A DNA stretch of 64,000 bases from NCBI GenBank assembly GCA_011525755.1, contig WYBS01000091.1:6922-70921 (forward strand), written 5' to 3'. The position numbers were made by a program, and so were the translations under genes. Under the pieces are notes generated by a model. That model was not told the DNA's origin. It saw only the letters and a list, made by a program, of their open reading frames with translations, and made no database searches. This document shows positions 7,478 through 60,882 of this stretch, one piece after another. Positions within the stretch are counted from its first letter, which is position 1, and every line of letters starts with the position of its first letter. This stretch comes from Planctomycetaceae bacterium (lineage in GTDB: Bacteria > Planctomycetota > PLA2).

Positions 7478-7500
7478 AGGTCGCGCCCGGCCGGCGCCCG

Positions 7501-38494: not shown

Positions 38495-41400
38495 TCAGGC
38501 CGGACCGGACCACGCCGCGACGAACATGCGCCGCTCCTCCTCCGTCGGGAGGCGGGCGGCAAGCTGGTGCAGCTCGTCCTTGCGGATCGTCGCGTGCTGC
38601 GACTCGCCGAGCCGAGCGAGCATCCCGCGGAGCCGCAGCGTGAGCCAGACGTGGCCGAGGCGGCGGGCGTCCGCGAGCGCGCGCTCCGCGCGGCCCTTGG
38701 CCCCGTCGAGGTAGCCCGCCCGTGCGCGCCCCTCGGCCTCGAGAACGCCGCCGAGCACGCGAAAGGCCGCGCGCCGGAGGCCCACGTCCTCCCCGCAGAG
38801 CCGCTCGGCCGCGGCGAGCAGCAGGGACGGATCCTTTTCGCGTGCGGCGAGCGCGCGTGCGGCACGTGCGAGCGCGAGGGGCCGGAGGACGACGTGCGCG
38901 TCGTCTGCGCGCGCATCCGCGACCAGCGCCTCCGCCTCCTCCAGCAGCTCCGCCGGCGCGCCGTAGACGCACGCCTCGGCGAGCCACAGCACGGCCTCGG
39001 CGCGCGGCGGGAGCTCCTTCACGGCCCTCGCCGTGGCGAGCGTCTGCCGCGCCGCGCTCGTGGCGCGGGCGAGGTCGCCCGCGAAGCACGCCACGTGGCA
39101 GGCCAACGCGTGGCCCTGGAGGATGTTGATCCTGTCGTCGCGGAGCTGGGCGAGACGCTGCATCTCGGCGAGGGCCTCCAGGGCCACGTCGAGGAACCCC
39201 TCGACCGCGGCGAGGTGCGCGCGCTGGCGGAGGGCGGGGATGAGGCCGCCGAGATACCGCTCCCGTCGCAGCGTCGGCAGGGCGTCGTCGATGGCGGCCT
39301 TCGCGCCCGGGAGGTCGCCGATCGCGTAGCGCGTTTCCGCGAGGAGGACGCGGGCGGCCGACGCATGGTGGAAGGAGCCCTCGCGAAGCAGCACCCGGAC
39401 CACGTCCTCGAGCCGCCCGCAAACCCCGTCGACGGCGCCGCGCTGCAGGGAGGCGAGGGCGCGGTTCCCCTCGGAGAGGGCGGCGTTGCTGCGCCGGCCG
39501 ACCATGGCGGAGATCCGGGCCGCGTCGCCGTAGAGGGCCTCCGCCTCACGCCACCGGCCCCGCCGGAGGGCGACCGATCCGAGCTGGTCGAGCGCCGAGG
39601 AGTGGTGCCCGAGATCGCCCGAGGCGACGTAGGCGTCGTCGGCGAGCCGGAACCGCCGCTCCGCCTCGTCGAGGTCGCCGCGGTACTTGGAGACCTGGCC
39701 GAGCAGGTACCAGGCCCGGCCCTGGTAGCTGCAGGGGGGGAGGGTCCGCACGGCCTGCCGGAGCGCTTCCTCGTCGAGGCCCACGAGCCCCTGCGACTGG
39801 TAGCGGGTGGTGGCGCGGAGGATCATCACCTTGAGGTCCAGGTGGGTGTCGTTCGCGAGCTTCGCGCCCTCGCTCAGCCGGGCGTACACCGCCTCGATCT
39901 CCTCGAGCCGTCCGACCTGCCCCAGGGCGACGCAGAGCCCGAGGAGCAGCTCGGAGTGGCGGACGGCGGTCTCCGGGTCGAGGCGTTCCGGGCCGAGGCC
40001 GGCGCGACGTGCGAGATCCAGCGCGCGGAGGGACTCCTGCCGCGCCAGGGCCTCCTGGGCCGCCCGCATGAGGTGCGGCCCCGCCTTCGCGGGCTCCCCC
40101 GCGCGCTCCCAGTGGATGCCGAGACGGGCCGCCGCGCCCGCCGTCCCGTCGGCGCGCGTTTCCAGGTGCTCGGCGAGGCAGCGATGGAGCGTCCGGCGCA
40201 GGTCCGGCACCAGATCCTCGTAGATCCCCTCCTGGACGGCCGCGTTCGCGAAGCGGAATCCCTTGGCCCGCGGCACGACGAGCCCCGTCGCCCGGTAGAT
40301 CCGCTGCGCGCCCCGGAGCACGTCGAGCACCGGCCGGCCCCAGGCGGCCGCGACGGCTTCGGCATCGAACTCGACGCCGTCGACCGCCGCGGTATCGAGG
40401 ATCGCCCGCTCGTCGTCCCCGAGCTCCCTCGCTCGAAGCAGCACGAGGTCGCGCACGCGGCTCGGGAGGGTGACGTCATGGAAGGCCGGGCCGGGGACCA
40501 GCATGCCCCTGTCGTTCGAGAGCGCTCCCGCCTCCTGGAGGTGGCGGAAGACCTCGATCGTCAGGAGGGGATTGCCCTCGGCGACGTCGAGTACGCGGCG
40601 CAGGACCTCCGGAGCCACGCGGGACCCGTGGGCACGTTCCTGGAGGAGCCGCGACACGGCGTCGGGGTCGAGAGGCCCCAGCTCGAGGATGGCCGCGCCG
40701 TCCTGCGCGAATCCGGAGAACGCGTCCGCCGCACGGTCCGGGCGCAGCGTGATCAGGAGGAGGACGCGCGCATCCCTGAGGCGACGCGCGATCTCCTGCA
40801 GCAGTCGCAGATCCGCCTCGTCAGCCTGGTGGGCGTCCTCGACGAGGATCCCCAGCGGGCGATCCTCCGCGAGGCCCGCGAGCAGGTCCTCCACGCCCCA
40901 GAACACCTGCTGGCGGCTGTCGATCCGCACCGGGCTCTCCTCCTCGAGCAGCGCCCGCAACAGGTTCGTCGCGGTCCCGAAGAGCCTCGACTCGACGAGG
41001 CCTTCCCCCTCTCGGCCCTGCGACGCACCGAGGAGGTCGCGCGCACTGGTCAGCAGCGGCCGGAGCAGCCCCTCGATCGGACTCGATCGCGCCTGGATCC
41101 ACCGGTAGCCGTGACGTCCGGAGCGAGCCATGAGGTCATGGGCGAGCGCGCTCTTGCCCAGCCCCGCCTCCCCCCGCAGGAGGACGGTCGTGCCGTGGGC
41201 CTCGGCCGCCCGCTGCGCCGCCTTGTCCAGCGCGTCCTGCTCGGCGCGGCGGCCGTGGAGCCGGGACGCCGGCGCCACCCTCGGCACGGCGGCCCGGGGC
41301 GCCGCCTCGGCGACCGTCGTCGCCGGATCGAGATCGGAGAGCGCCTCCGCGCACGACGCCGGCCGCTCCTCGGGCGCCTTCGACAGGCAGCGCATCGCGA

Positions 41401-42136
41401 GGTCGGCGAGGGGGCGCGGGAGGTCCGGGTCGAGCGGCGGGGGGTCGCCGTTCTGGATCGCGTAGAAGAGCGTGGCAAGCGTCTTCGCGAAGAACGGCAG
41501 CCGGCCCGAGAGGATCCGGTACAGCACGGCGCCGACGCTCCAGAGGTCGCTCGCGCGGGTCGGCTGCTCGCCCATGACGATCTCGGGGGCCATGTAGACC
41601 GGCGTGCCCACGACCGCCGCGAGCGGGACGCGGAGCGAGAGGTCGCCGGTGAGCCGCGAGAGCCCGAAATCGACGAGCTTCACCGTGCCGTCCCTCGCGA
41701 AGAGGACGTTGCCGGGCTTCACGTCGCCATGCACGACCCCCTGACCGTGCGCCTCCTTGAGACCGAGAAGGATCCCGCGGACGATGCGCCGCGCCTCGTC
41801 GAAGGGGATCCGCGGGGTCGAGTGGATCCGATCCTCGAGCGATCCGCCCTCGACGTACTCGAGCTCGAAGGCCCAGCCCCGCTCCGGCAGCGGATGCACG
41901 CGGTAGAGCGTGGCGACGTGCGATCCCTTCAGCTTGCCGACGAGCCGCGCCTCGCGGAGAAGCGCATCCTTCTCCTCCTCGACCGGCCCGCTCCCGGGCA
42001 GCTCGACGACCTTCAGGGCGACGTGCCGGCCAAGGAGCAGATCGCGGGCGAGATAGACCTGGCCGAATGCGCCGCTCCCGAGCGCACGGACGATCTCGAG
42101 GTCACCGAAGCGGGATCCGGATCGCCACGCCTCCAC
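38495..42136 (-). CDS. Ser/Thr protein kinase fused to AAA+ ATPase and TPR/regulatory C-terminal region
   Basis: Kinase motifs 'LGSGAFGQVYLA', 'VALK', 'HGDVKPGNVL', 'DFGLS', 'APE'. P-loop 'GEAGLGKS'. 1213 aa. Confidence 0.85.
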   Translation of the reverse strand: MEAWRSGSRFGDLEIVRALGSGAFGQVYLARDLLLGRHVALKVVELPGSGPVEEEKDALLREARLVGKLKGSHVATLYRVHPLPERGWAFELEYVEGGSLEDRIHSTPRIPFDEARRIVRGILLGLKEAHGQGVVHGDVKPGNVLFARDGTVKLVDFGLSRLTGDLSLRVPLAAVVGTPVYMAPEIVMGEQPTRASDLWSVGAVLYRILSGRLPFFAKTLATLFYAIQNGDPPPLDPDLPRPLADLAMRCLSKAPEERPASCAEALSDLDPATTVAEAAPRAAVPRVAPASRLHGRRAEQDALDKAAQRAAEAHGTTVLLRGEAGLGKSALAHDLMARSGRHGYRWIQARSSPIEGLLRPLLTSARDLLGASQGREGEGLVESRLFGTATNLLRALLEEESPVRIDSRQQVFWGVEDLLAGLAEDRPLGILVEDAHQADEADLRLLQEIARRLRDARVLLLITLRPDRAADAFSGFAQDGAAILELGPLDPDAVSRLLQERAHGSRVAPEVLRRVLDVAEGNPLLTIEVFRHLQEAGALSNDRGMLVPGPAFHDVTLPSRVRDLVLLRARELGDDERAILDTAAVDGVEFDAEAVAAAWGRPVLDVLRGAQRIYRATGLVVPRAKGFRFANAAVQEGIYEDLVPDLRRTLHRCLAEHLETRADGTAGAAARLGIHWERAGEPAKAGPHLMRAAQEALARQESLRALDLARRAGLGPERLDPETAVRHSELLLGLCVALGQVGRLEEIEAVYARLSEGAKLANDTHLDLKVMILRATTRYQSQGLVGLDEEALRQAVRTLPPCSYQGRAWYLLGQVSKYRGDLDEAERRFRLADDAYVASGDLGHHSSALDQLGSVALRRGRWREAEALYGDAARISAMVGRRSNAALSEGNRALASLQRGAVDGVCGRLEDVVRVLLREGSFHHASAARVLLAETRYAIGDLPGAKAAIDDALPTLRRERYLGGLIPALRQRAHLAAVEGFLDVALEALAEMQRLAQLRDDRINILQGHALACHVACFAGDLARATSAARQTLATARAVKELPPRAEAVLWLAEACVYGAPAELLEEAEALVADARADDAHVVLRPLALARAARALAAREKDPSLLLAAAERLCGEDVGLRRAAFRVLGGVLEAEGRARAGYLDGAKGRAERALADARRLGHVWLTLRLRGMLARLGESQHATIRKDELHQLAARLPTEEERRMFVAAWSGPA

Positions 42137-48735: not shown

Positions 48736-50130
48736 TCAGCCTTCCTGCACGAGCCCGAAGCGAGCGAGGAACGCGGCAAGGACCTCGTGGAACTTCGCGT
48801 TCTCCTCGACGAACGGCATCGCCTTCGTCTCCCGGATCGGCGCGACCATCGAGCGCGGGAAGATCCGCTGGATCCGCTCGGCGTCCACGTGCCCGCTGAA
48901 CGGGCTCGACGCGCTGGAGAGGAAGAGGGCCGGCACGTCGAGCCGCCCTTCCCGGCTCCACGAGATCTCGGGCACCGTCGCGAACCCCTGCGGTTCGCGG
49001 GCGCGGTGGAAGAGCCACGCGATCTCGAGGTCGGCGGGGTCGAGGAACCCCTGCGCGAGCCCGATCGCGTGGAGTTTCGCGAGGAGCCCCTCGTCGAACC
49101 GCGCGCCGGTCTCGCGGAGCAGCGTGCGCGCGACGAACTTCTCGTTCGCGTCGCCCGCCGCCGCGCCGCGCCGCAGCGCGTCGGCGTACGCCCGCTTGTC
49201 GAGCGCCGTGTCGATGAGCACGAGGCCGCTGCACCGGTCGGGATGGAGCACGGCGTAGCGGAGCGCGATCCAGCCCGAGGCCCCGTTCGCGAGCACGACG
49301 AACCGCTCGATCGAAAGCGACGCGCGGAACGCGTCGAGCGCGCGCACGAGCCGGTCGACGGGGTACTCCGGGAGATCGTCGCCGTACCCGCTCCTCCCGG
49401 TCAGCTCCTGCACGCCGGGCAGCCGCACCCATGTGATGGCCGCCCTGTCCCGGAGCGGGAGGAGGTAGGGCCCGAACGCGGCGGTCGTGAATCCGAACGC
49501 CGGCAGCACGAGGATGTGGGGGGGCTTCGGGGGCGGGCCGCCCTTCCTCTCCGTCGGGACCGGCGCGACGGTCCGCGTCTCGAGCTTCACCCCCTCGTAC
49601 TCCCCCTGCTTCGCCTCCTCGTCGGCGGGTGCGAACCGCGGGTCGCCCTCGTTCTTCTTCCACCACTCGCTCCAACGTGCAGGGTCGAGGAGGCACGGCG
49701 CGGGCGTGAGCGCGCGGAGCGTCTCCACGATCTGGAGCGCCGTGCGGCGGTCGGTCTCCTTGCCGAGGGCCTCGACGAGCGCGCTGACGGCCCGCCGGTC
49801 CCTGTGGCGCGCGAGGGCGCGCGCCGCGGCGCGCCGGACGGCCGGGGTCCCGTCCTTGAGCGCGAGCGCGAGCACGGTGGCGTTCCCGAGGTCGGGCTCA
49901 AGAAGGCACGCCCAGGCGACCGCCTCGCGCGCTTTCGGCCTCCCGTCCCGGAGGAGCGCCGCCCGCGCCCGGAAGACCTCCTCGGTCCCGGCAAGCCGGG
50001 CGAGCCCCTCTACCGCCTCCCACCGGGTCTCCCAGCGAGGGGCGTCGGCCCTCTCGAGCAGGACGTCGAGGGAGCCCTCGGCGGGGGCCCTCGCCGCGAA
50101 AAGGAGGAGAACGGGCAGGAGGCGCCGCAT
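48736..50130 (-). CDS. secreted HEAT-repeat plus alpha/beta-hydrolase fold protein
   Basis: Signal peptide 'MRRLLPVLLLFAARAPAEG'. HEAT-like 'AVRRAAARALARHRDRRAVSALVEAL'. Hydrolase-like 'VVLANGASGWIALRYAVLHPDR'. Confidence 0.65.
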   Translation of the reverse strand: MRRLLPVLLLFAARAPAEGSLDVLLERADAPRWETRWEAVEGLARLAGTEEVFRARAALLRDGRPKAREAVAWACLLEPDLGNATVLALALKDGTPAVRRAAARALARHRDRRAVSALVEALGKETDRRTALQIVETLRALTPAPCLLDPARWSEWWKKNEGDPRFAPADEEAKQGEYEGVKLETRTVAPVPTERKGGPPPKPPHILVLPAFGFTTAAFGPYLLPLRDRAAITWVRLPGVQELTGRSGYGDDLPEYPVDRLVRALDAFRASLSIERFVVLANGASGWIALRYAVLHPDRCSGLVLIDTALDKRAYADALRRGAAAGDANEKFVARTLLRETGARFDEGLLAKLHAIGLAQGFLDPADLEIAWLFHRAREPQGFATVPEISWSREGRLDVPALFLSSASSPFSGHVDAERIQRIFPRSMVAPIRETKAMPFVEENAKFHEVLAAFLARFGLVQEG

Positions 50131-50371
50131 CGGCTTCCTTGGAAACGTCCCAAGGCCCGTGCAGTTTCGCACGCTTTGGCCGTGCGGCTCGGCACCGGGT
50201 GCTCAGGGAAAGGGGCTTCCCAAGCGGGTTCCCGAAGTCGTAGGATTGGCAAGCCCTGTGCATCAGGGCCTTTGGGCACCGCGGGGATCCGCCCCGCGGG
50301 GCGTGTGGCAAGCGTCCGATCCGAGAGACTCGTAGGCGAACGGGGCCGTTGCCGAGGGAGGCCCCGGTAGC

Positions 50372-50406
50372 CCGAGGGCGTCCGGTCGAGAGCCGGACGC
50401 CCTCGG
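50372..50406. terminator. perfect 14-bp stem-loop (CCGAGGGCGTCCGG-N7-CCGGACGCCCTCGG), candidate factor-independent terminator after the minus-strand prenyltransferase-like gene
   Basis: Direct reading. No U-tract. Confidence 0.4.
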
Positions 50407-50465
50407 ACCGCTCCTTCGTTCGGGCCGACGGCCCCCCTTGCCCCCGGACCCCCTGATTCCCCCCG

Positions 50466-51548
50466 CTAGCGCTGGAAGATCGGCAGATAGCCCTCGTCCA
50501 CCGAGAGGGCGAGCACCGCGAACGCGGTCGCGTGGTGGCGGCCGTGCGAGCCGCGACGCGCGTCGGCCGTGAGGCGGTCGTCCCAGAATCCCTCGCGCTG
50601 CTGCTCGTCGAGGAGGCGCGGGATCCCGTACCGCTTCCAGGTCTCCCAGTGCGCGCCGCCAGCGCGGTAGAAAGCCTGCGCCGCGTAGTAGTGGCAGTAG
50701 AACGGCCACTGCAGGTGGAAGAGGTCGCGGCCGCGGTAGGAGCGGTCGAGGTACTCGAGCCCCTTCGTGATGGGGCGGGAGTAGTACTCGCCGAAGCCGT
50801 GCATCGCGGTGAGCGCCGCGGCCGTGAGCGCGGGCGTGGACGTGTCCGCCATGTGGCTGTACTTGAACGAGCCGTCGGGCTTTTGCGAATCGCGCAGGTA
50901 CTTGAGGCCGCGCTCCTGCACCTCGCGGTCGACGACGAAGCCCGCATCCGCCGCGAGGCGGAGCGCCTGCACGACGGTGACCGTGACCGAGCCCTCGTGC
51001 ATCGTCGAGGAGCGCGGCTCGTAGCCCCAGCCGCCCGTGATCGTCTGCGAATCCTCGATCACCTGCACCGCGCGCTTGATCTTCTCCCTGAGCTCGCGCT
51101 CGCGCGCCGCGTCGGCCCTGCCCGTGCCGTAGACGAGGATGAGCGCCTGCGTGGCGTAGCCGTGGCCGTGCATCCGGGAGTCCGCGTCGCCCTCGGCGAA
51201 GATGTAGCCCGCGGGATTTCCCTGGAGGGGCGTCGGTGCGCTGTTCTTGAGCAGGAAGTCGACCGCGCGGCGCACGACGTCGCCGCGACCGGGGAAGTCG
51301 GCGTAGGGGCCGAACCCCTCCTGGTGGCCCTGCGCGAGGAACGCGAGCACGCCGAGCGCGGTGATGCCGATGATGCCGCGGTCCGGGGCGCCCCACGATC
51401 CTTCCTTGCTCTGCTCCTGCGCGAGGTAGTCGAGGCCCCTGCGGACCGCCCTCGCCCGGTCCCCCTCGAGCTCGCGGGGGGGCGCCGAGATGTCCTGCGG
51501 CCGCGCCAGGGGCGCGAGTGCCAGGAGGAGGGCGAGGGACGCGCGCAC
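50466..51548 (-). CDS. secreted prenyltransferase/squalene-oxidase-repeat (terpenoid-cyclase-fold) protein, paralog 1
   Basis: GTG start giving signal peptide 'MRASLALLLALAPLARPQ'. 'QEQSKEGSWG' and 'DSQKPDGSFKY' are PFTB-type repeats. C-terminus '...EGYLPIFQR'. Confidence 0.65.
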   Translation of the reverse strand: MRASLALLLALAPLARPQDISAPPRELEGDRARAVRRGLDYLAQEQSKEGSWGAPDRGIIGITALGVLAFLAQGHQEGFGPYADFPGRGDVVRRAVDFLLKNSAPTPLQGNPAGYIFAEGDADSRMHGHGYATQALILVYGTGRADAARERELREKIKRAVQVIEDSQTITGGWGYEPRSSTMHEGSVTVTVVQALRLAADAGFVVDREVQERGLKYLRDSQKPDGSFKYSHMADTSTPALTAAALTAMHGFGEYYSRPITKGLEYLDRSYRGRDLFHLQWPFYCHYYAAQAFYRAGGAHWETWKRYGIPRLLDEQQREGFWDDRLTADARRGSHGRHHATAFAVLALSVDEGYLPIFQR

Positions 51549-51607
51549 CCGTAGAGGGTACCCCGCGGCGGGGCCGAGACGATCGAATCCCGCGCGGGGC
51601 CGCCGCG

Positions 51608-52369
51608 TTACCGGTCCCCCTCGGGTTCCTTCTCCGCCTCGCGCTTCGCGCGCTGCGCGGTGTACTCCTCGACGAGACGTCGGTACTGGATCGGGATGCG
51701 GCTGAAGTCGTTCCGGTTGATCCGCTCCTGGTCCTCCGGCGGCAGGCGGGCGATCCACGCCTCCACCCGCTTCACCTTCGCCGCCGCCGTGTCCTCGGGA
51801 GCCTGCGGCCGCCGTTGCCGGTCGAGCTGGCGCTTGTCCTTCTGTTCGTCCTTCTGCTGGCGCGGGGACCGGGGCTGGTGCTGCTTCCGGTCCTCTTCCT
51901 CGCGCTCGCGGAGCTGCTTCTCCCGCTCCTCGGCGGACTTCTTCTCCTTCGAGTCGGAGGACGTGCCCTGCATCTGCTGCTGGCGAGGGAGGGAGTTGAG
52001 CAGCTCCTCGAGCTGCTTGACCGTGAGGTCCGCCTTCTCCCGCTCGCTCCGGAGCATCTCCTCGAGGCGCTGCGAGATCTCGCCGTGCTTCGACTCGAGC
52101 TGTTGCCGCTGCTGCGCGCGCTCCTCGGCGCCGGCGCCGCCCTCGCCTCCCTGCTCGGGCGGGAGCAGCTTCTTCATCTCCTCCTCGACCTGCTTCTGCG
52201 CCTCGACCAGGCGGTCGACGCGCGTGATCTCGAGGAGGAGGCGCTCGCTCTCGCGCATGAGGCGGGAGATCTCGGCGACCTGCTGCCGGAGCTTCTCCTC
52301 GACGGATTCCTGCTGCGCCGCGGCGGTTGCCGCCGCGAGGAGCAGCGCGAGGAAGGTCTTTCGGATCAT
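51608..52369 (-). CDS. secreted coiled-coil protein (253 aa) with C-terminal 'RRLVEEY' motif
   Basis: Signal peptide 'MIRKTFLALLLAAATAAAQQ'. Highly charged E/R/Q/K-rich. The C-terminus resembles that of the 8429-9676 protein. ATGA overlap with the upstream giant gene. Confidence 0.55.
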   Translation of the reverse strand: MIRKTFLALLLAAATAAAQQESVEEKLRQQVAEISRLMRESERLLLEITRVDRLVEAQKQVEEEMKKLLPPEQGGEGGAGAEERAQQRQQLESKHGEISQRLEEMLRSEREKADLTVKQLEELLNSLPRQQQMQGTSSDSKEKKSAEEREKQLREREEEDRKQHQPRSPRQQKDEQKDKRQLDRQRRPQAPEDTAAAKVKRVEAWIARLPPEDQERINRNDFSRIPIQYRRLVEEYTAQRAKREAEKEPEGDR

Positions 52370-55300
52370 CGTCCGTCCTCCTTGTCGTCGCCGGGCGCGT
52401 CGCCGTTCCCGGCCCCGCCGCCCTCCTCCGGACCCGCGCCGCCGCCCTCGGGCGGCGTCTCGCCCCCGGCCCCGTGGCCCTCGTCGGAGGGCCCGAGGGG
52501 GTGGTCCTCCTCCGAGCCGAAGAGCGACTGGGAGAGCGAGTCGAAGAGCTCCGCGAGCGATCCCTGCTGGTGGTACATCCGCTCGACGCGCGCCTTGTCC
52601 GCGTCCGTCGGCGGCTCCTTGCCGAATTCGGGCCGGTTCGCGAAGAAGTTCTCGCGCTCCTGGTTGAGCGACTGCTGGAGCACGAGCATCATGCGGATCT
52701 CGGCGTCCGGCGGCACGAGCACCGGCTTGTTCTGCACGTCGGTCGGCCGCTCGCCCTGCTGCTGCTGTTGCTGCTGCTGCTGGCGACGGTCCTGGAGGTC
52801 GCGTTCGAGGCCCTTGATCGCGAGGTCGAACCGGCGCACGACGTCGCCGAGGAGCTCCTGCGGGAGCAGGCCGACCTCGCTCATCTCGAGCTGCGCGGCC
52901 GTCTCCTTCAGGTCCGCGGAGCAGCCCTTGAGGATGTAGGTGTAGACGACCGCACCCTCGCCCTCGACGGCCCCCGCCTTGTCCGCGACGTCGCGCTGGA
53001 GCGCCGAGACCTGGTCGATGAGCTTCTTGAGGTCGCCCCTCCGGATGTCGCGCGTCACGCGCCCGCGCTTCTTCACCTCGGCCTCGATCGCCATCAGCAT
53101 CTCGCGATGGCCCTGCGCGGCGCGGCGGAAGTTCCGGAGCTCCTCCTTGAGCTTGTAGAGCAGCTCGTGCTGGCGGAGCTGGCGGTAGCGGCGCTCCTCC
53201 TTGTCGAGCTGCTGCTGCGCCTGCTCGAGCGCCTTCTCCGCGCGCTCCTGCGAGCGCTCGGCCTCGTCCGGGTCGCCCTCCTCGAGGGCCTGACGCGCCT
53301 GCCGCATCGCGGCCTGCGCGTCCTGGAGCGATTCGACCCCCGGCTTCTGGTCCTGCCGGCGCAGCCGCTGCTCGAGCTTTTTCACCTGGTCCTCGAGCTC
53401 CGCCTGCCGCTCGCCGATCTTCTTCATCGCCTCGCGCCCGCCGGGCGTCGTGTCGCGGTGCGACTCGCGGAGGCCGTCGAGGCTCCGCTTCGCGGCATCG
53501 ACCTTCTCGTCGGCCTCGCGGCGGTCCTGCTCCGCGCTCTTCGGCAGCCCCTGCCGGAGCCGGCGCAGCGAGCGACGGAGGGCCTCCGTGGCCTCCTTCG
53601 TCCGCTCGGCGGCATCCTCGAGGCGGCCGCGGGAATCGCTCTCGCGGGCCGCGCGGGCCCCTTCCCCGAGCCCCTTCCCGATCTCCTCCGCGCGACGCGC
53701 GGCCGCCTCCGTGGCCTTCTCGATCCTCTGCAGCGCCTCGGCGTTCCTCTCGGCGGTCGCCTGCGCCTCGCGCTGCGCGTCGGCGACGAGCTTGTCGAGC
53801 TGCCGGATGACCTCGTCCTGTCGCTTCTGCGCGGCGACCGGGTCGTCGCGGCGGATCTCGTCGCGGGCGGCAGCAGCCTCGTTCGCGGCGGCCTCAAGCA
53901 CCTCGCGCTGCGCCTCGCCGGGCCGCTCCGCGAGGCCCTTCAGGTCGTCCGCCACGAGCCCCTGCCGCCCGGCGAGGTCCTCGCTCGGGCGCGTGGCCGC
54001 GGCGATCTCGCGCATCGCGCGCTCGGCCCGCTCGGCGGCGGCGCGCGCCCGCTCCTCCGCGCGGCCGGCCTGCCCCTCGCGGGCCGACGCGGCGGCCGCC
54101 TCGAGATCCTCCTTGGCGCGCTCGGCGGCGGCGCGGGCGGCGTCGGCGGCGGCCGCCATCCCGCCCTCCTTCGCCTTCGGGTGGTCGGCGAGCGCCTTGA
54201 GCCTCTCCGCGAGAGCCTCGGCGCGGGCTGCGGCCTCCTCTGCCTTCCGGTCCTCGCCCGCGGCAGGCCCTTGGGTCTCCTTCGACGCTCCGGCGAGCGC
54301 ATCGTGCGCGCGGCGGAGGGCGTCCGCGGACTTCCGGGCGGCGGCCTCGGACGGGCGCCCCTGCTCGAGCCCCTCGGCCGCCTTCCTGGACTCAGCGGCG
54401 GCCTCCTTCAGCGCGCTCTCCGCGGCCTCCGGGGCGCCGGCGACGGCGGATTCGGCCTCGCGAGCGACGCTCTCCTCGTCCCGCGCGAGCGTCTCCCTGG
54501 ACGGCGCGCGAGCGAGCGCCGCCTCGATCGCCTCGCGCGCCCGCTCCAGGGTGAGCGCCTGCGTGCCGAGCGCCTCCGCGATCCTGCGCAGCGCGTCCGC
54601 CTCGCCCTCGCGCGCTGCCGCCGCGGCCTTCTCGATCTCCTCCTTGGCCTTGGTCGTGTCCGCCGCGTCGCGCGCTCGCTCGAGCGCCTCGCGCGCGGCG
54701 ATCTCCCTGGCCACGGCGTCCTGGCGCCGGGCGAGCGCGTCGATGGCCCGTGCCTTCTCGCCGAGGGCGTTCCTCTTCGCGGCGGCCTCTTCGGCGGCCC
54801 GGGCATCCCGCGCGAGCGCCTCGAGCTCCGCGAGGGCCTCGTTCGCCTGAGGCGTGAGGGCGTCCGCCTCGCCGCGCCGGGCGCCGGTCTCCTGGCGCAG
54901 GCGCTGCTGGCGCGTGAGGAGATCCGCGAGCCGCGTGGCGCGCTCCCGCGCCGCGTCGATCTCCTTCAACTCCGCGGCGGCGCGCCGGTCCAGATCCTCG
55001 ATCTGCCTGCCGAGCTGGTCGAGTTCCTTCGCGCCCTTCCGCGCGGCCTCCTCGGCTGGCGTGCGGGCCACGGCGTCTTGCGTCTCCTTCCGGAGCTCGC
55101 GCTGGCGCCGCGTGAGGGCGTCGGCCTCGGCGCGCGCGTCGCGGAGCGCCGCCTCGCGGTCGCCGAGCTCCTTCAGGTCGTCCGGTCCCGTGAGGACGTG
55201 GAGGATCTCCTCGAGCGTTCCCACCACGCCCTGCCCGAGCTCCTGCACCTCCTCGGTCGCGTCGGGGCGCTCCTCGAGGGTGCGCGCCATCTGTTCCATC

Positions 55301-55608
55301 GCGCGCTGGAGGTTCACGAGCATCAGCTCGGTCTCCTCGCTCCCCGCGACGCCGCCCACCTTGATCTTCTGCTGGAGGATGATCGCGCGGACGCGTTCGA
55401 GGATCTCGGCCTTCTCCTGCTCGTTGCGGCGGCGCAGGTCCTCCTTGAGCACGTCCATCTTGTCGAGGAGGTCGCCGAGCTGCTCGGCCGCGCGCCTCTG
55501 GCGCGCCGCGAGCTTCTGGAGCGTCGAGCGCGCCTCCGGCTCCTGGCCGCCCGCGGGGAGCGCGAGCGCGCAGGCGAGGGCGAAGAGGAGGATCGGGGGG
55601 ATTCGCAT
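52366..55608 (-). CDS. giant secreted Ala/Glu/Arg-rich coiled-coil protein (1080 aa) with Q9 tract
   Basis: ATG at 55608 has a GGAGG RBS 7 nt upstream. Signal peptide 'MRIPPILLFALACALALPAG'. Low complexity. The (CTG)4TTG(CTG)4 run at 52756-52782 encodes the poly-Q. Confidence 0.6.
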   Translation of the reverse strand: MRIPPILLFALACALALPAGGQEPEARSTLQKLAARQRRAAEQLGDLLDKMDVLKEDLRRRNEQEKAEILERVRAIILQQKIKVGGVAGSEETELMLVNLQRAMEQMARTLEERPDATEEVQELGQGVVGTLEEILHVLTGPDDLKELGDREAALRDARAEADALTRRQRELRKETQDAVARTPAEEAARKGAKELDQLGRQIEDLDRRAAAELKEIDAARERATRLADLLTRQQRLRQETGARRGEADALTPQANEALAELEALARDARAAEEAAAKRNALGEKARAIDALARRQDAVAREIAAREALERARDAADTTKAKEEIEKAAAAAREGEADALRRIAEALGTQALTLERAREAIEAALARAPSRETLARDEESVAREAESAVAGAPEAAESALKEAAAESRKAAEGLEQGRPSEAAARKSADALRRAHDALAGASKETQGPAAGEDRKAEEAAARAEALAERLKALADHPKAKEGGMAAAADAARAAAERAKEDLEAAAASAREGQAGRAEERARAAAERAERAMREIAAATRPSEDLAGRQGLVADDLKGLAERPGEAQREVLEAAANEAAAARDEIRRDDPVAAQKRQDEVIRQLDKLVADAQREAQATAERNAEALQRIEKATEAAARRAEEIGKGLGEGARAARESDSRGRLEDAAERTKEATEALRRSLRRLRQGLPKSAEQDRREADEKVDAAKRSLDGLRESHRDTTPGGREAMKKIGERQAELEDQVKKLEQRLRRQDQKPGVESLQDAQAAMRQARQALEEGDPDEAERSQERAEKALEQAQQQLDKEERRYRQLRQHELLYKLKEELRNFRRAAQGHREMLMAIEAEVKKRGRVTRDIRRGDLKKLIDQVSALQRDVADKAGAVEGEGAVVYTYILKGCSADLKETAAQLEMSEVGLLPQELLGDVVRRFDLAIKGLERDLQDRRQQQQQQQQQGERPTDVQNKPVLVPPDAEIRMMLVLQQSLNQERENFFANRPEFGKEPPTDADKARVERMYHQQGSLAELFDSLSQSLFGSEEDHPLGPSDEGHGAGGETPPEGGGAGPEEGGGAGNGDAPGDDKEDGR

Positions 55609-55706
55609 GGGGGTGCCTCCGCTGACGGACCGCCGCGGGTCGCCCGGATGCGCGCCCGCCGCGCCGCGGGCGCGGGGGAGCCGGGGAGATCTCGTCGGGC
55701 GCACGG

Positions 55707-57965
55707 CTACTTCTTCTCCTTGCGCAGCTCGTCCACGATGCCCTGCTCCGTCTCCTTGAGACCCTTGAACCAGCTGATGACCCCCTCGTAGCTCTCCCAC
55801 TCGCGCATGAGGCGCTCGAGCTTCTCGAGCCCGGCGAGGATCGTCCGCAGGGCGGCGTCGGCCTCGGCGAGGGCCGTGCCACGCTCCGCGGAGTCCGCGG
55901 CGGAGCCGGCGCGGCCGAGGGCGCGGTAGGTGCGCGGTCCCTCGTCCGTCGCGAGGTCGTCGGCGAGGAACGCCATCTCGAGCAGCTTCATCTGGGCGTC
56001 GCCGAGGCGGATGCGCTTCTCGACGAACGCGACCCAGAGCTCGCGGTAGAGCTCGCCGCGGAACGGCAACGCGCCGGCGTCGGACGGGGCGAGGAGGTGC
56101 CGCTCGTAGAACGGGAGGATCTGCTCGGCGGCCGAGCGGTCGTCGAGCCGGTTGAAGACGTACAGGTTGACGACGGTGCCCACGCGCGCGGCGAGCGTCT
56201 CGAGCTGCTCGAGGACCCGCCCCTGCGAGGCCTGGGCGAGGTCGTTCGCGTGCCGGAACTCCTGGGGCACGTCCGAGACGTCGCGCGCGAGCGTGAGCTT
56301 CTCGCCCGTCTCCCGCGCGCGACCGTCGGCGCGCCGCACCGTCTCGCGCAGCTCCTGCTGCCGCGCCTGGAGGATCTGCGCGAGCTCCTCGTCGCCGACC
56401 ACGTCGATACGCTGCTGGCTCCGCGTCTCGCGGGTCTTCCCGCCCGAGTCGAGCGCCTCGAGGGTATAGGTGAGCTTGTCGCCCTTGTCGATCAGCTTGC
56501 CGTCCTCGCGCAGGAGCCGCGCGAGGTCGATCGCGAAGATGCCGTGGAGCTCGGTGCCCGTGCGCGCCGCGGGGACGAGAGCGCGGATCGCGTCCCCGCC
56601 CGACTCGCCCGCCTTCACGCTGCGCGGGGACTCCTCGTTGACGCGGTACCGGAGCGTCACGCTCTCGACGCGGTAGTCGTCCTGGGCGGAGAACGCGACG
56701 AGGACGATGCCCCCTTCGAGGTACTCCGACTGGGCGGCCGGCGTCCGCACGCGGATCGACGGCGGCTGGTCCTGCACGACCTGGAGGAGGAACGTGTCCG
56801 CGCCCGGGTCATTCTCCTCGCCGTTCGTGCCGACGAGGCGCAGCGCGTACCGGAGGTTCTTCTCGGCCACGACGTCGAGGACCGCGAGGTCGGGCTCGAG
56901 GAGCTCCATCGGCCGGGGCTCCTCGGTGCCGAGGACGGCCGAGGCCTCGCGCAGCGGCAGGTTCGTGCGCACGCGGACCTTGAGCTTCGTCCCCTGCGGG
57001 ATTCGCTGTCCGCCCCCCTCGAGCTTCGCGGGGGGCCTCGCCAGGTAGTCGGGGTACGTCGCCTCCATCTCGATCCCGAGCACGGAGGGCGGCGTGAGCG
57101 CCTCGATCCCGTAGTTCTCCGCGCGATCGTCGTCCCCGCCGGTCACGGTGAACCGGTAGGAGGAGTAGACCTTCAGCGTGAACGCGAAGAGCGAGGGGTC
57201 GTCCGCCGAGGGCGTGAGGTCGATCTCGTCGGCCCGGCCGGGGCCGGCGGTCGTCTCCCAGAACGTGAAGCGGACGCGGTCGGGGACCGAGCCCTCCGCG
57301 CGCACGCGGAGGGTCGTCTCGTGCCCCAGCGTCACGCGACGCGAGACGCCCGGCTCCATCCCCTCGACGACGAGCACCGTGCGGCGCGGCCACGAGATCT
57401 CCCGCAGGAGCAGGGAGCGCTGCACGAAGATCCTCGCGAGGTCGGCGCGCGCGACCGCGGCCGTGCCGACGAGGAGCGCGACCGCTCCGGCCGCCGCCGC
57501 CCAGCGCGCCGGGATCCGCCCGGCCGCGACACGCCGGAAGGGGATCGTCGCGACCTCGCGCACCGTCTCCTCGACGACCGCGCGCATGAGCTCCCGCGAG
57601 TCCTCGTTCTCCGGGTCGTCGGCCGCGCTTGCGAAGGCGAGGCTCGAGCGCAGCCGGTCGTTCAGGCGCGGGTGCGCGCGCTCCACGCTCGCGGCGAGCG
57701 TCTCGTCGGGAAGCTTCCTGAGGAGCGGCCGGAGCAGGTTGCGGACGATCACGGTCCCCGCGCCGAGCAGGAGCATCAGGAGGAGCACCGCGCGGACGGA
57801 CAGCGGCAGGCGGAGCACGTAGTCGAGCCCGAAGAGGAGGGCGAGCGCCGCGCCGAGGAAGATCGCGAGGCGGCCCGCGCCCAGCACGAGCATGAGCCCG
57901 CGGACGCGCGTCCGCAGGCTCCCGAGGCCCCGGCGCAGCGGGCGGACGAGCTCCGCGAGGCTCAT
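55707..57965 (-). CDS. large membrane protein (752 aa), 2 N-terminal TM helices (possibly DUF4175-like)
   Basis: TMs 'LMLVLGAGRLAIFLGAALALLFGL' and 'AVLLLMLLLGAGTVIV'. The segment 'RNLLRPLLRKLPDETLAASVERAHPRLNDRLRSSL' parallels 'FLKPGIPAVAREIDARLSTDRFSSAL' of the 8429-9676 protein. ATGA overlap with the anti-sigma stop. Confidence 0.6.
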   Translation of the reverse strand: MSLAELVRPLRRGLGSLRTRVRGLMLVLGAGRLAIFLGAALALLFGLDYVLRLPLSVRAVLLLMLLLGAGTVIVRNLLRPLLRKLPDETLAASVERAHPRLNDRLRSSLAFASAADDPENEDSRELMRAVVEETVREVATIPFRRVAAGRIPARWAAAAGAVALLVGTAAVARADLARIFVQRSLLLREISWPRRTVLVVEGMEPGVSRRVTLGHETTLRVRAEGSVPDRVRFTFWETTAGPGRADEIDLTPSADDPSLFAFTLKVYSSYRFTVTGGDDDRAENYGIEALTPPSVLGIEMEATYPDYLARPPAKLEGGGQRIPQGTKLKVRVRTNLPLREASAVLGTEEPRPMELLEPDLAVLDVVAEKNLRYALRLVGTNGEENDPGADTFLLQVVQDQPPSIRVRTPAAQSEYLEGGIVLVAFSAQDDYRVESVTLRYRVNEESPRSVKAGESGGDAIRALVPAARTGTELHGIFAIDLARLLREDGKLIDKGDKLTYTLEALDSGGKTRETRSQQRIDVVGDEELAQILQARQQELRETVRRADGRARETGEKLTLARDVSDVPQEFRHANDLAQASQGRVLEQLETLAARVGTVVNLYVFNRLDDRSAAEQILPFYERHLLAPSDAGALPFRGELYRELWVAFVEKRIRLGDAQMKLLEMAFLADDLATDEGPRTYRALGRAGSAADSAERGTALAEADAALRTILAGLEKLERLMREWESYEGVISWFKGLKETEQGIVDELRKEKK

Positions 57966-58969
57966 CGGCGTGCCTCCGCGCGGACGCCTCCTCGCGGGTA
58001 CGAAACGAAAAGCGCCTCCCCATCCGTCACCGGACGCGGGAGGCGCAGGTCGAAGGTCCGCTCTGCCCCGGGCGCGAGCGGGAAGGGCTGGAAGTCGTCC
58101 GGCGCGAGGGGGAAATCGTGGCCCGCATAGCTCGCGAAGAAGAGCGGCTCGCCGCCCTTCGAGGGCGCGAGGTCGATGGGGTCGGGCATCTCGTTCCGCA
58201 GCGTGACCCGGATCGTCGAGGCGTCAAGGGTCCGGGCTTCGAGCGAGGGGCGGCGGAACCAGGAGCGGGGGGAGGGGGGCAGGGGGGGAGGGGGGGCGGT
58301 CGATGCGAAGAAGGCCTCGCCGGGGCCGGCGACGGCCTCCCGGCCTTGCCACGAGCATCGCACGTGGCCGGACTCCGTCCAGACGAACGTGTGCTCCCTC
58401 CGCTCGACGAGAAACGCGGTCCCGGTCGTCACCGCGACGAGGTCCCCGGCCGTCACGGAAAACCCCGACTGCTCCGGAGGAACCTCCAAAAAGACGCGGC
58501 CCGCGCCGAGCGCGAGCCGTGTCTTCGAGAGCAGCCGGATGTCCGTGCCGGCGTCCATCGTGATCGTGATGCCGTCCGCCGTGACGACGCGGGCCACGTC
58601 CGACGCCTCGTAGACGCCCGGCTCGCGCTCCGCGACGTGGCCGTGCACGCGCGTGAGGCCCGTGGCGCCCTGCGGCCACAGGAGCGCGAACACGATGAGC
58701 GCGGCGGCGGCCAGCGGCAGCCGGAAGCGGTGGAGGAGGGAACGCTGCCTCGGCGCGGGCTCCTCGATGCGTTCGCGGATCGAGGACCAGAGTGCCGGGG
58801 GAGGCTCGAGCCGGGGCGCCTTGTCATGGAGACGCATGTGGCGCTCGATCTCCCGGAGCTCCTTCGCGAGGTCCTTGTCGCTCGCGACCGCCGCCGCCAC
58901 GCGAGGCGCGTCGCCGGGAGGAAGCCCGCCGAGGGCGAAGGCGACGAGATCCTCCCGCGTGATGTCCAT
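57962..58969 (-). CDS. anti-sigma factor, FecR-domain
   Basis: N-terminal anti-sigma segment. TM 'LPLAAAALIVFALLW'. FecR-like 'TADGITITMDAGTDIRLL...GRVFLEV...TGTAFLVER'. Start abuts the sigma stop. Confidence 0.75.
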   Translation of the reverse strand: MDITREDLVAFALGGLPPGDAPRVAAAVASDKDLAKELREIERHMRLHDKAPRLEPPPALWSSIRERIEEPAPRQRSLLHRFRLPLAAAALIVFALLWPQGATGLTRVHGHVAEREPGVYEASDVARVVTADGITITMDAGTDIRLLSKTRLALGAGRVFLEVPPEQSGFSVTAGDLVAVTTGTAFLVERREHTFVWTESGHVRCSWQGREAVAGPGEAFFASTAPPPPLPPSPRSWFRRPSLEARTLDASTIRVTLRNEMPDPIDLAPSKGGEPLFFASYAGHDFPLAPDDFQPFPLAPGAERTFDLRLPRPVTDGEALFVSYPRGGVRAEARR

Positions 58970-59563
58970 TCACTCCTCCAGATACGATGCGAGCCGGTCT
59001 CGCAGCAGGCGTTCCGCCAGCGCCACCCGGCTCTTCACGGTCCCCACGGGGATGTCGAGGATCTGCGCGATCTCCGCGTAGGGGAGCTGCTGGTAGCGTG
59101 CGAGCACGAAGGCCGCGCGCAGCTTCTCCGATAGCCCGGCGACGGCGCGACCGACCGCCTCGGACAGCTCCTTCGCCCGCGCCCCGCCGAACGGCGACCC
59201 GTCGCCGCGCGCGTCGGGCACGAGCGAGAGCTGCGCCTGCGCCTCCTCGCCGCCGGCACCCGTCGCGAACGGGCGGCGCCGGATCTTCTCCCGCTCGTTG
59301 AACCAGAAGTTCTTCGCGATCTCGAAGAGCCAGGTCGACACCTTCCCGATGGGGCGGTAGGTCGCGCGGGCGCGCCAGACGCGGAGGAAGGTCTCCTGGA
59401 GGTAGTCCTCGGCCGCGATGCGGTCGAAGCACATCTGGTGGAAGAAGTTCAGGAGGGGGTGCGCGTAGCGGCCGTAGAGCAACTCGAAGGCCCTCACGTC
59501 GCCCGCTTGAACGCGGGCCATGAGCTCCTGGTCGGAACGGTCGTCGGAAATCCCACTGGCCAT
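58970..59563 (-). CDS. ECF-type RNA polymerase sigma-70 factor
   Basis: Region 2 'LLYGRYAHPLLNFFHQMC...DYLQETFLRVWR'. Region 4 'LARYQQLPYAEIAQILDIPVGTVKSRVALA'. Confidence 0.9.
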   Translation of the reverse strand: MASGISDDRSDQELMARVQAGDVRAFELLYGRYAHPLLNFFHQMCFDRIAAEDYLQETFLRVWRARATYRPIGKVSTWLFEIAKNFWFNEREKIRRRPFATGAGGEEAQAQLSLVPDARGDGSPFGGARAKELSEAVGRAVAGLSEKLRAAFVLARYQQLPYAEIAQILDIPVGTVKSRVALAERLLRDRLASYLEE

Positions 59564-59709
59564 ATAACCGCTCCGGTTCCCGGGGGTTCGGCGCGAGCCT
59601 AGCACCGGGCCGGGATACGCGCAAATGTCTGTACACCAAAGGCTTATGTCGTCCGGTCTACTGCGGGGGGCTCCGGGGGCCCGGCCTCGCGTGTCCGGCG
59701 CAAAGAGGC

Positions 59710-60882
59710 CTACCGCTGGAAGATCGGGAGGTAGTGCTTCGGCACCTGGAGGATGATCGCGGCCACCGAGGTCGAGAACGCATCCCCGACGTGGCGGGCG
59801 CGCCAGGAGGTTTCGCTGCCGCGCGGGCCGCCGGCCGTCGTGTAGGCCCTCTCGAGCAGGTGGTCGCGCACCATCGAGTACCACGCCCGCCATGTCTCCC
59901 CGCCGCGGGTGTACATCGCCTGGGCGGCGTAGTAGTTCCCGTAGAAGTAGAAGTAGTGGTCGTCGAACTCCTGGAGCACGGCGTCGTAGGTGCGCTCGAG
60001 GTAGAGGAGGCAGTCGCTGATCTTCGGGATCTTCGTGATCCCGTTCTGCATGCAGAATCGGTGGACGTCGGCGTCGGAGTAGAGCCCGGCCTGGTAGATC
60101 GTCGTGAGGCCGGCGGCCGTCAGCGCGAAGCTGTTCCTGTTGAACGGGACGTCCTTGTGCTGGTAGAGGAACGCGCCCCGCTCGTTGGGCCGCGTGACCG
60201 CGGAGTTCATCACGTATTCGAGCGCCTTGTCGATGTGGATCTTCGGGACCTTGATCCCGATGTTTCTGGCCTCGCGCAGCGCGACCACCTGGCAGACGGT
60301 GATCGACATGTCGGCGTCCTGCGCCCCGGGCGCGTAGCGCCAGCCACCCAGCGCGTTCTGCGAGTTGTAGGTGAACTCGACGGCGCGGTCGAGCCGCTCC
60401 CGGAGGATCGGGTTGCCCGTCATGCCGTACATCTCCGCGAGGAAGAGCAGGCTGAAGGCGTGGCTGTACATGCGGCTTCCGTTGCGCGTGATGTAGCCGT
60501 CCTCGTGCACGGAGGAGAGCACGAAGTCGAGCGCGTCCTTGACGACCACGCCGTACGGACCCTCGCCCGGCAGGTGACCGCCCGCGAGGAATGCCATGCC
60601 GGCCAGCGCGGTCACGCCGAGGTGCGGCAGCCCGCCCGGCGGCTGGTGGACGGGATCGGGACGGTAGCCGTCGTTGATCTTGAAGCCGAGGGTCGCGTTC
60701 CACGAGCCCTTCGCGTCCCCCGTCCGGTTCTGGCGCTCGGCGAGCCAGCGGAGCGCGCCTTCGACCGCGTCGTCCGTCCGGTCGGTGTAAAGGGTCTCCC
60801 GCGGCCGGATCTCCTCCTGGGCCCACGCACCGCCGCCCAAGGCGGCCATGAGGCTCAGGAGCGCTGTCAGGCGAAGGTGCAT
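59710..60882 (-). CDS. secreted prenyltransferase/squalene-oxidase-repeat protein, paralog 2
   Basis: Signal peptide 'MHLRLTALLSLMAALGGGAWAQ'. 'RQNRTGDAKGSW', 'NSQNALGGWRY'. C-terminus '...PKHYLPIFQR', same tail as paralog 1. Confidence 0.65.
   Translation of the reverse strand: MHLRLTALLSLMAALGGGAWAQEEIRPRETLYTDRTDDAVEGALRWLAERQNRTGDAKGSWNATLGFKINDGYRPDPVHQPPGGLPHLGVTALAGMAFLAGGHLPGEGPYGVVVKDALDFVLSSVHEDGYITRNGSRMYSHAFSLLFLAEMYGMTGNPILRERLDRAVEFTYNSQNALGGWRYAPGAQDADMSITVCQVVALREARNIGIKVPKIHIDKALEYVMNSAVTRPNERGAFLYQHKDVPFNRNSFALTAAGLTTIYQAGLYSDADVHRFCMQNGITKIPKISDCLLYLERTYDAVLQEFDDHYFYFYGNYYAAQAMYTRGGETWRAWYSMVRDHLLERAYTTAGGPRGSETSWRARHVGDAFSTSVAAIILQVPKHYLPIFQR

Follow-up and report, generated by a model that had tools for sequence, protein, structure and literature searches.

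Why would a bacterium place an extracytoplasmic function (ECF) sigma factor and its anti-sigma factor at the head of a set of genes for very large envelope proteins? The question is raised by a gene cluster at positions 50466-59563 of a 64,000-nucleotide stretch of DNA, referred to here as the window, from the Planctomycetaceae bacterium assembly GCA_011525755.1 (contig WYBS01000091.1, positions 6,922 to 70,921 of the forward strand). The cluster encodes, in order, an ECF sigma factor, a FecR-type anti-sigma factor, a membrane protein of 752 amino acids (aa), two secreted proteins of 1080 and 253 aa, and a secreted (alpha/alpha)6 barrel protein that we call toroid-2. An earlier reading made from the letters alone (the sequence-only reading) took these six genes for one operon and proposed an envelope or surface-layer scaffold, an adhesion apparatus or a sensing apparatus. 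Our analysis places them in a longer locus, and we are confident that its identity and architecture are as described below. As an overall explanation, a Bat-type envelope locus with a split DUF4175 scaffold and an ECF/FecR switch has, in our judgement, an even chance of being correct.

All six genes were confirmed within the cluster, co-directional on the minus strand (Table 1), and the open reading frames and the sequence at the junctions agree with the arrangement first proposed. The stop codon of the sigma gene abuts the start codon of the anti-sigma gene (TGA, ATG), while the anti-sigma and 752-aa genes, like the 1080-aa and 253-aa genes, overlap by ATGA. Spacers of 98 nucleotides (nt) separate the 752-aa and 1080-aa genes and 59 nt the 253-aa and toroid-2 genes. 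A GTGA overlap at this last junction was considered and rejected, as the codon at 51611 is GTA and cannot serve as a start; for that reason, and because the resulting 360 aa match the lengths of the orthologs, the toroid-2 start is most likely the GTG at 51548. Related loci and homologous proteins are cited below by their L and P numbers.

Table 1. Features of the cluster and its immediate surroundings, in window coordinates, with the evidence for each.
Feature	Position	Strand	Evidence or remark
Putative ECF-type promoter motif GAACC-N14-CGGTT	59566-59589	-	upstream of sigma gene
ECF sigma factor	58970-59563 (maximal open reading frame from ATG 59563)	-	Sigma70_r2 3.8e-13, Sigma70_r4_2 2.1e-15
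FecR-type anti-sigma factor	57962-58969	-	FecR PF04773 1.4e-6, 29.1 bits vs cut-off 24
752-aa membrane protein, apparent DUF4175 N-half	55707-57965	-	structure model and remote-homolog profile matches
1080-aa secreted helical-repeat/coiled-coil protein, apparent DUF4175 C-half	52366-55608	-	PF13779 matches of orthologs
253-aa secreted, highly charged coiled-coil protein	51608-52369	-	signal-peptide-like N-terminus, conserved C-terminal motif
Toroid-2, secreted, one (alpha/alpha)6 barrel domain of 360 aa; final gene of the predicted operon	50466-51548	-	SQHop_cyclase_C 1.5e-13
Toroid-1, secreted single-domain (alpha/alpha)6 paralog	59710-60882	-	SQHop_cyclase_N 1.5e-4
Stem-loop, GC-rich, without U-tract, candidate transcript end	50372-50408	-	58 nt past toroid-2 stop
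PQQ-like beta-propeller/TPR protein, C-terminal ~1002 codons of ~1460 aa	60988-64000	-	PQQ_2 1.9e-15, TPR_6
HEAT-repeat and alpha/beta-hydrolase protein, secreted	48736-50130	-	HEAT_2 3.3e-12, Abhydrolase_1 9.5e-8

The window proteins were mapped onto 14 related loci. Gene order and orientation are identical in every locus long enough to show them, over a range of identity of the 752-aa protein from 88% down to 43%, an agreement well outside what chance would give; the neighbourhood conservation that the sequence-only reading had put forward as a check is thus borne out. The conserved unit spans ~25 kilobases (kb) and runs from a PQQ propeller protein (~700 aa) through MoxR, DUF58, BatA-N/VWA (~750 aa), VWA/GATase1-like (~830 aa) and giant PQQ/TPR (~1460 aa) proteins to toroid-1, sigma, anti-sigma, the 752-, 1080- and 253-aa proteins and toroid-2. 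MoxR, DUF58 and BatA-N/VWA genes lie directly upstream and co-oriented in L003, L004 and L005. The PQQ/TPR gene of the window runs off its end; full-length orthologs have 1449-1484 aa and are always found directly upstream of toroid-1. By this shared gene order, the six genes make up the downstream half of the ~25-kb unit, and the interval first delimited is too narrow as a unit because it leaves out toroid-1, a positionally conserved member of the core. Close homologs of the 752-aa protein all come from uncultured Planctomycetota assemblies, and a close relative was found in only nine species-representative genomes (20-sequence alignment). The homolog set includes one relative from a cultured organism, Posidoniimonas polymericola (P0066).

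Bat loci are associated with the cell envelope and their function is unclear (PMC3557215). MoxR-proper ATPases are typically encoded at the front of operons together with DUF58, VWA and TPR proteins (PMC11834572), and a role of MoxR-VWA pairs in assembly or remodelling has been proposed in general terms (PMC7159879; PMC11834572). The related loci resemble such operons in that MoxR stands at the front and MoxR, DUF58, BatA-N/VWA and a second VWA gene are co-oriented. They differ in that no BatD or BatE (SH3) type proteins were seen, and in the addition of PQQ proteins, toroids, a split DUF4175 protein and an ECF/FecR pair.

A second, smaller Bat-like cluster lies elsewhere in the window (8429-12209, plus strand). 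It begins with a 415-aa protein that has an N-terminal transmembrane hairpin and a C-terminus, AWPEL...ARKLVREYFERL, like the C-terminal motif of the 253-aa protein. A DUF58 protein (9640-10527, 1.4e-28) and a BatA-N protein (10530-12209, 1.6e-3) follow, and no adjoining MoxR gene was seen.

The link to DUF4175 comes through homologs. Searched against Pfam and NCBIfam, the 752-, 1080- and 253-aa proteins of the window gave no match, even at E<=10, and an NCBIfam search of 42 remote homologs of the 752-aa protein also returned no family; existing models in these databases cover neither this protein nor most sampled members of its family. Three of the 42 remote homologs did match the Pfam profile of DUF4175 (PF13779; 825 positions, cut-off 27.3 bits), among them P0223 (36.3 bits) and P0251 (34.6 bits), both at profile positions 185-351. 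For the 1080-aa protein, orthologs and remote counterparts align to this profile over positions ~505-760, those of L005 (35.0 bits) and L016 (31.7 bits) at ~650-760. Since homologs of the two proteins match separate N- and C-terminal parts of one profile, the 752-aa and 1080-aa proteins appear to be the N- and C-terminal halves of one DUF4175-type protein. Of the two DUF families that the sequence-only reading suggested searching for, DUF4175 was found above its cut-off, in homologs of both proteins and not in the window proteins; DUF4129 was never seen. The statement that none of the structural components has an assignable function holds insofar as they still have no known function; that they belong to no assignable family is too strong, given this link.

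In layout, the locus resembles the DUF4175 proteins of the TIGR02302 type from Alphaproteobacteria: two or three helices span the membrane at the N-terminus, the middle is Ig-like, and the C-terminal half, which is long, helical and of low complexity, is predicted to lie outside the membrane. It differs in that the protein is split into two genes, in the window and in all related loci, the second with its own signal peptide; the two products, of 752 and 1080 aa, together far exceed the 825 positions of the profile, and the locus adds two toroids and a small coiled-coil protein. The TIGR02302 family description includes a split pair in Bradyrhizobium. In Rhodobacter sphaeroides, CenR, a regulator of the envelope and of division, directly targets a TIGR02302 gene (PMC9275681), as would fit a role in the envelope. 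AdvA, the 'DUF4175' protein of Acinetobacter (PMC7481262), proved uninformative as a comparison, being a much smaller division protein with a partial domain call only.

An AlphaFold model of the 752-aa protein (42-sequence alignment) has a predicted local distance difference test score (pLDDT) of 91. From the N-terminus, a transmembrane hairpin is followed by a helical domain and a third hydrophobic helix; then come three Ig-like sandwiches (residues 196-522) and a long C-terminal four-helix bundle (525-750). There are thus three hydrophobic helices (26-51, 56-74 and 156-174) and not the two transmembrane segments first described. From the distribution of charge and the third helix, the Ig-like domains and the bundle would lie in the periplasm. 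Fold searches of the Protein Data Bank (PDB) with this model returned generic Ig arrays and four-helix bundles only, with designed bundles scoring highest among the latter, and a sequence-profile search of the PDB with the 752 family found no solved relative. The family itself is large: its profile gave 18,961 matches at E<=1e-3 and 5,124 at E<=1e-30 among 1.84 billion representative sequences, and the best 150 matches are mostly full length. No match to the 752-aa protein was found among plasmids by tblastn.

The Ig-like domains of this family carry invariant acidic clusters, at residues 276-280 (GGDDD), 429-430 (DD) and 506 (D), reminiscent of the Ca2+-binding sites in Ig-like domains of bacterial adhesins.

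The 1080-aa protein does have the signal-peptide-like N-terminus and the run of nine glutamines (Q9) noted by the sequence-only reading, together with an acidic tail and a conserved C-terminal region. It is more than a coiled coil, being built of helical-hairpin repeats of ~38 aa (A..AM..A..AL..GD...A...Q..A...L), of which the window protein has four and its relatives have up to nine. In the PDB, sequence-profile searches with the 752 and 1080 families returned Ig-like chains or designed helical proteins only, hence no solved relative of either. The 253-aa protein ends in a motif, W-x-x-LPP...P..YR.L..EY, that is common to its counterparts in L015, L016, L017, L018 and L019.

Which of these genes form the core of the system can be judged from six remote loci, with 752 homologs that have ~22-27% identity to the protein of the window (protein lengths in aa stand for the coiled-coil and membrane proteins). 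Both regulatory genes are present in L015 (Ser/Thr kinase, sigma, FecR, 825, 1247, 347) and L017 (toroid ... sigma, FecR, 921, 1457, 160+85). L018, from a Brocadiia metagenome-assembled genome, has FecR only (FecR, 701, 993, 241, toroid). Neither gene is found in L016 (toroid-1, 772, 885, 255, toroid-2), L019 (BatA, VWA/GATase1-like, PQQ, toroid-1, 774, 459+481, 242, toroid-2) or L020 (PDZ-PQQ, 829, 255, ...). The toroids of L019 keep both position and orthology (toroid-1 1.1e-76, toroid-2 9e-52), a toroid-1 ortholog occupies the same position in L016, and the BatA/VWA/PQQ linkage recurs in L019. We read toroid-1, the 752-aa protein, the giant protein, the small coiled-coil protein and toroid-2 as the conserved core. 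Because this core recurs with both regulatory genes, with FecR only or with neither, the sigma and anti-sigma genes appear to be an optional insertion. Where FecR is present in these remote loci, it lies directly upstream of the 752 homolog in three of three.

Two of these loci have features of their own. In L020 a PDZ domain is fused to the PQQ propeller, and in L015 the kinase encoded directly upstream of the sigma gene of the module has 1688 aa (2806-7872).

The same comparison bears on the original proposal in its adhesion form, in which the six genes would be complete in themselves and make a stand-alone, ECF-controlled surface apparatus, the MoxR, BatA and PQQ genes being unrelated neighbours. 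L015 and L017 are as this proposal would have it, with sigma, FecR, 752-like, giant and small genes and neither BatA nor MoxR in the 8-10 kb shown upstream; so are the Ig-like arrays of the 752-aa protein, which in fold searches resemble those of the bacterial adhesin SiiE and of an ice-binding adhesin. However, L016, L019 and L020 have the core with neither sigma nor FecR, and BatA, VWA, PQQ and toroid genes stand directly upstream in this lineage and again in the remote L019. The 752-aa protein is anchored by its N-terminal helices and shows no outer-membrane or cell-wall sorting feature, and the locus contains no secretion-system genes. Nothing that we tested specifically supports an adhesion or S-layer role, and we consider a stand-alone surface apparatus unlikely.

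Turning to regulation, the sigma factor consists of region 2 (residues 29-96) and region 4 (135-186), with no region 1 or 3. It scores 78.1 bits against the TIGR02937 sigma70-ECF model (cut-off 42.9), and all its matches to NCBIfam equivalog models are far under their cut-offs. Its start is probably the ATG at 59521, giving 183 aa, since the 'ELM' at this start is universally conserved, the first ~14 codons of the maximal frame are conserved as DNA regardless of frame, and the promoter motif abuts 59563. The anti-sigma factor has an N-terminal anti-sigma domain (NCBIfam 'antisigma' NF052375, 3.6e-13, under the cut-off of that model), one hydrophobic segment forming a single transmembrane helix at ~84-102, a periplasmic FecR domain, also recorded in its orthologs, and a C-terminal beta-rich region. 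These scores, with those of Table 1, bear out the assignment of the pair as ECF sigma factor and FecR-type anti-sigma factor.

ECF-dependent promoters typically combine an AAC-containing -35 element with a GTT-containing -10 element. On this ground we read GAACC-N14-CGGTT, found immediately upstream of the sigma gene, as a putative autoregulated promoter of the operon. The motif GAACY-N14-CGGTW occurs with fixed spacing upstream of sigma in nine of nine orthologous loci, within intergenic DNA of ~100-550 base pairs that differs in length and is otherwise unalignable among them. Near-matches in the remote L015 (GAACA-N14-GGGTT, in an AT-rich genome) and L017 (GAACC-N14-TGGTT) bring the total to 11 of 11 sigma-bearing loci, and control of the cluster by its sigma factor, as first proposed, is plausible. 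The exact motif matches once in the 64-kb window, where 0.18 matches are expected; with one mismatch allowed there are six matches against 3.4 expected, and none but that at sigma lies at a gene start.

Two further observations concern this motif. In the window, the ~20 nt that follow it (ATGGCCAGTGGGA; 59521-59563, minus strand) are conserved as DNA in most orthologous loci, even out of the sigma frame (L005, L011), and this stretch may be a transcription-start or 5'-untranslated-region element instead of coding sequence. L005 has a second exact copy (20139-20174, equivalent to L008 12171-12206) within the 3' end of the 752 homolog, ~120 nt before the giant gene; this copy may be an internal promoter in that lineage, and the window has no equivalent.

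The gene overlaps, the promoter motif and the hairpin after toroid-2 together support, and do not prove, transcription from sigma to toroid-2 as one message. The stem-loop has ~17 paired positions and its region a folding z-score of -2.06; L006 has a similar hairpin after toroid-2, and L012 and L019 have other hairpins there. The proposal of a single operon gains from the tight and overlapping junctions, the conserved colinearity and this hairpin. It does not hold in its self-contained form, as the upstream genes belong to the locus too. Scanning the window for sigma-70 promoters gave no sites, the terminator-like sites listed lay within coding regions, and an Rfam search of the whole 64 kb gave no matches.

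These observations can be joined in a mechanism, which taken as a whole is tentative: it could well be right, and failure in one part or another is somewhat the likelier outcome. The cluster would be the regulated half of a planctomycetal envelope locus of the Bat type (MoxR/DUF58/BatA/VWA-associated). Since DUF4175 proteins have both halves in one chain, the 752-aa and 1080-aa proteins would bind each other; together they would make a long scaffold in the periplasm, anchored in the membrane, to which the 253-aa coiled-coil protein and the toroids would attach. The MoxR AAA+ ATPase encoded upstream, with the DUF58, BatA and VWA proteins and the PQQ propellers, would assemble or remodel this complex. 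In the lineage of the window, the ECF sigma and FecR anti-sigma genes would have been inserted between toroid-1 and the 752-aa gene. The anti-sigma factor, presumably coupled in translation to the 752-aa protein, would monitor the scaffold in the periplasm and keep the sigma factor at the membrane. When this contact or the envelope is disturbed, the sigma factor would be released, bind its own GAACC-N14-CGGTT promoter and increase transcription of the genes for sigma, anti-sigma, the 752-, 1080- and 253-aa proteins and toroid-2 in a single message that ends at the 3' hairpin, so that supply of the components is under feedback. An autoregulated sigma/anti-sigma operon, as predicted here, with AAC -35 and GTT -10 elements is also found in sigmaE-RseA and sigmaW-RsiW; the present operon differs in carrying a large structural cargo, for which the sigma pair is dispensable in other lineages.

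The regulatory pair might instead serve trans-envelope signalling of the FecI-FecR-FecA kind, with the complex of 752-, 1080-, 253-aa and toroid proteins sensing a ligand (e.g. a lipid or glycan in the toroid cavity) and the main targets of the sigma factor lying elsewhere. FecI-like sigma factors fall into groups ECF239-243 (PMC7826278), and the order of an ECF sigma factor followed by a single-pass anti-sigma factor with a periplasmic FecR domain is the same in both systems. However, there is no TonB-dependent transducer in the cluster, among its neighbours in the window or in the related loci shown, and the anti-sigma gene is here coupled to that of an inner-membrane protein with Ig-like domains. 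Among gene starts the motif was found only at sigma itself, several lineages have the core without any sigma or anti-sigma gene, and the fold matches of the four-helix bundle, led by designed proteins, are too generic to point to a sensor. We regard such a ligand sensor as quite unlikely.

The toroids raise the question of enzymatic activity. The AlphaFold2 model of toroid-2 (pLDDT 90.7, predicted TM-score 0.87) has as its nearest solved folds squalene-hopene cyclase (SHC), the single-domain myxobacterial cyclases 8paj/8pak, MstE (6sbe) and drimenyl-diphosphate synthase (Foldseek E 3e-8 to 5e-7; TM-score up to 0.63, for 8paj/8pak). A profile search against the PDB matched SHC at 5e-14, a match that covers only ~70 residues of QW-type repeats. 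The sequence-only reading, which had described a secreted protein of terpenoid-cyclase fold and suggested searching for prenyltransferase repeats, was right about the fold, as the SQHop_cyclase_C match and the SHC-like structures indicate; the models do not support membership among the enzymes or catalysis. AprG, glycosidases and thioester domains fit the fold about equally well, all at 15-20% identity. Toroid-1, whose longest open reading frame reaches 60945 and whose likely start is M22 at 60882, has ~31% identity to toroid-2 in a tblastn comparison; in the alignment of the family the figure is 37%. Signal-peptide-like N-termini are present in toroid-1 (MHLRLTALLSLMAALGGGAWA) and in toroid-2.

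Class II terpene cyclases use a catalytic DxDD (general acid) motif, and thioester domains a CGEQ motif. Neither toroid has DxDD, toroid-2 having a conserved D-A-D-S and toroid-1 a D-A-D-M instead, and neither has CGEQ; similarity to the thioester domains of alpha-2-macroglobulin and complement is weak by fold and by profile. It is on these features that we judge a periplasmic lipid-modifying pathway, in which the toroids would act on envelope terpenoids, as class II terpene cyclases or as enzymes that use prenyl substrates, and the other proteins would be their scaffolds. The shared (alpha/alpha)6 barrel with QW-type repeats, the SHC profile match and the D-A-D-S/M where an acidic motif might be expected all speak for such a pathway. 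Against it, the toroids are single domains without DxDD whose signal peptides would export them away from the cytoplasmic isoprenoid diphosphates, their sequence match to cyclases is confined to the repeats, and non-cyclases account for the fold just as well. An enzymatic pathway is, on balance, very unlikely.

Both toroids end in YLPIFQR (50466-50486 and 59710-59730), a tail that cyclases of class II do not share and whose conservation suggests a docking or sorting peptide. The toroids of the window, L016, L017, L018 and L019, otherwise ~30% identical, all end (Y/H)LP(I/S)(F/H/L)Q(R/V)-COOH.

The idea that the locus is a MoxR-vWA-centred conflict or defence system as in Kaur et al. 2020, with the downstream proteins as effectors, is largely refuted and keeps hardly any probability: the MoxR genes of related loci do match Pfam bpMoxR and are flanked by PQQ propellers, and such systems are reported in planctomycetes (PMC7159879), but the class is defined by a vWA domain fused to a ~4-bladed propeller (PMC7159879), whereas here large PQQ/TPR proteins carry the propellers separately, the gene set is strictly conserved with no turnover of effectors, domain searches of the window proteins detected no toxin-like domains, and PADLOC gave no match for the eight core window proteins (and one weak match, HEAT-ARM_XIII at 9.1e-6, for the neighbouring HEAT/alpha-beta-hydrolase protein).

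The reading that we prefer, a Bat-type envelope locus with a split DUF4175 scaffold and an ECF/FecR switch, has observations of its own weighing against it. The window stops inside the PQQ gene, which puts MoxR, DUF58 and BatA outside the view here, and no BatA or MoxR gene lies within 8-10 kb upstream in L015, L017 and L018, so that the link to MoxR is not universal. Bat-type loci have weak or no phenotypes in some organisms (PMC3557215). As regards the scaffold, the DUF4175 profile fails to match the window proteins themselves at E<=10, its C-terminal match falls in a repetitive helical region where the signal could be partly compositional, and there is no fused 752+1080 protein among 222 retrieved family members. 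As regards the switch, the motif is partly palindromic (AACC...GGTT) and may be an operator for another regulator, and no further copies were found at other gene starts in the examined loci, so that a single site defines the regulon. A search of the retrieved homologs for fusions of 752 with 1080 or of FecR with 752 turned up a single case, P0057, which was rejected as an apparent gene-calling artefact.

No paper that we found describes the module or its link to an ECF sigma factor, in line with the earlier view that the system is undescribed, and the essential-gene study of P. limnophila does not mention these families. We class it with the DUF4175/Bat-type envelope loci, as a split and elaborated form to which an ECF/FecR switch has been added; it is real and widespread, and remains an uncharacterised operon for which the present evidence does not show new biology. 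A bolder reading would make the core an unrecognised, phylum-wide planctomycetal envelope machine, comprising a scaffold assembled by MoxR and VWA proteins, an integrity reporter formed by FecR and the ECF sigma factor, and toroids acting as non-catalytic lipid or glycan binders docked via YLPIFQR. We think this doubtful; if true, it would give a first mechanistic handle on the Bat/MoxR 'aerotolerance' operons and on DUF4175 proteins.

MoxR/DUF58/BatA loci and DUF4175 proteins are very widespread and yet without known mechanism (PMC3557215, PMC11834572). The locus joins the DUF4175 halves, two exported toroids and a small coiled-coil protein into a single conserved set of structural proteins, and its ECF/FecR pair and predicted promoter would provide an experimental switch and a reporter where there is otherwise no phenotype by which the system could be followed. 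In addition, a family model for the ~19,000 representatives of the 752 type would improve the annotation of many planctomycetal genomes.

Downstream of the cluster, the gene for the HEAT/hydrolase protein is retained in L001, L002, L006, L008, L010, L012 and L013 and is absent from the remote loci. It is a syntenic neighbour in this lineage only, and its membership of the system is uncertain. In L001 (17340-18149) and L002 (18511-19296), an Asn_synthase-like gene on the opposite strand lies between toroid-2 and the HEAT/hydrolase gene; at the corresponding place, the window has a 335-nt spacer only (50131-50465). A Ser/Thr protein kinase of 1213 aa with a long C-terminal region is encoded ~8 kb downstream of the neighbours of the cluster (38495-42136, minus strand).

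Finally, the high G+C content of the window (~72%) generates long spurious open reading frames on both strands. Those antisense to the cluster, such as the 1154-aa frame at 52327-55791 (plus strand) opposite the 1080-aa gene, are artefacts and not genes, given a G+C content of 72-79% and a coding strand rich in Ala, Glu and Arg.

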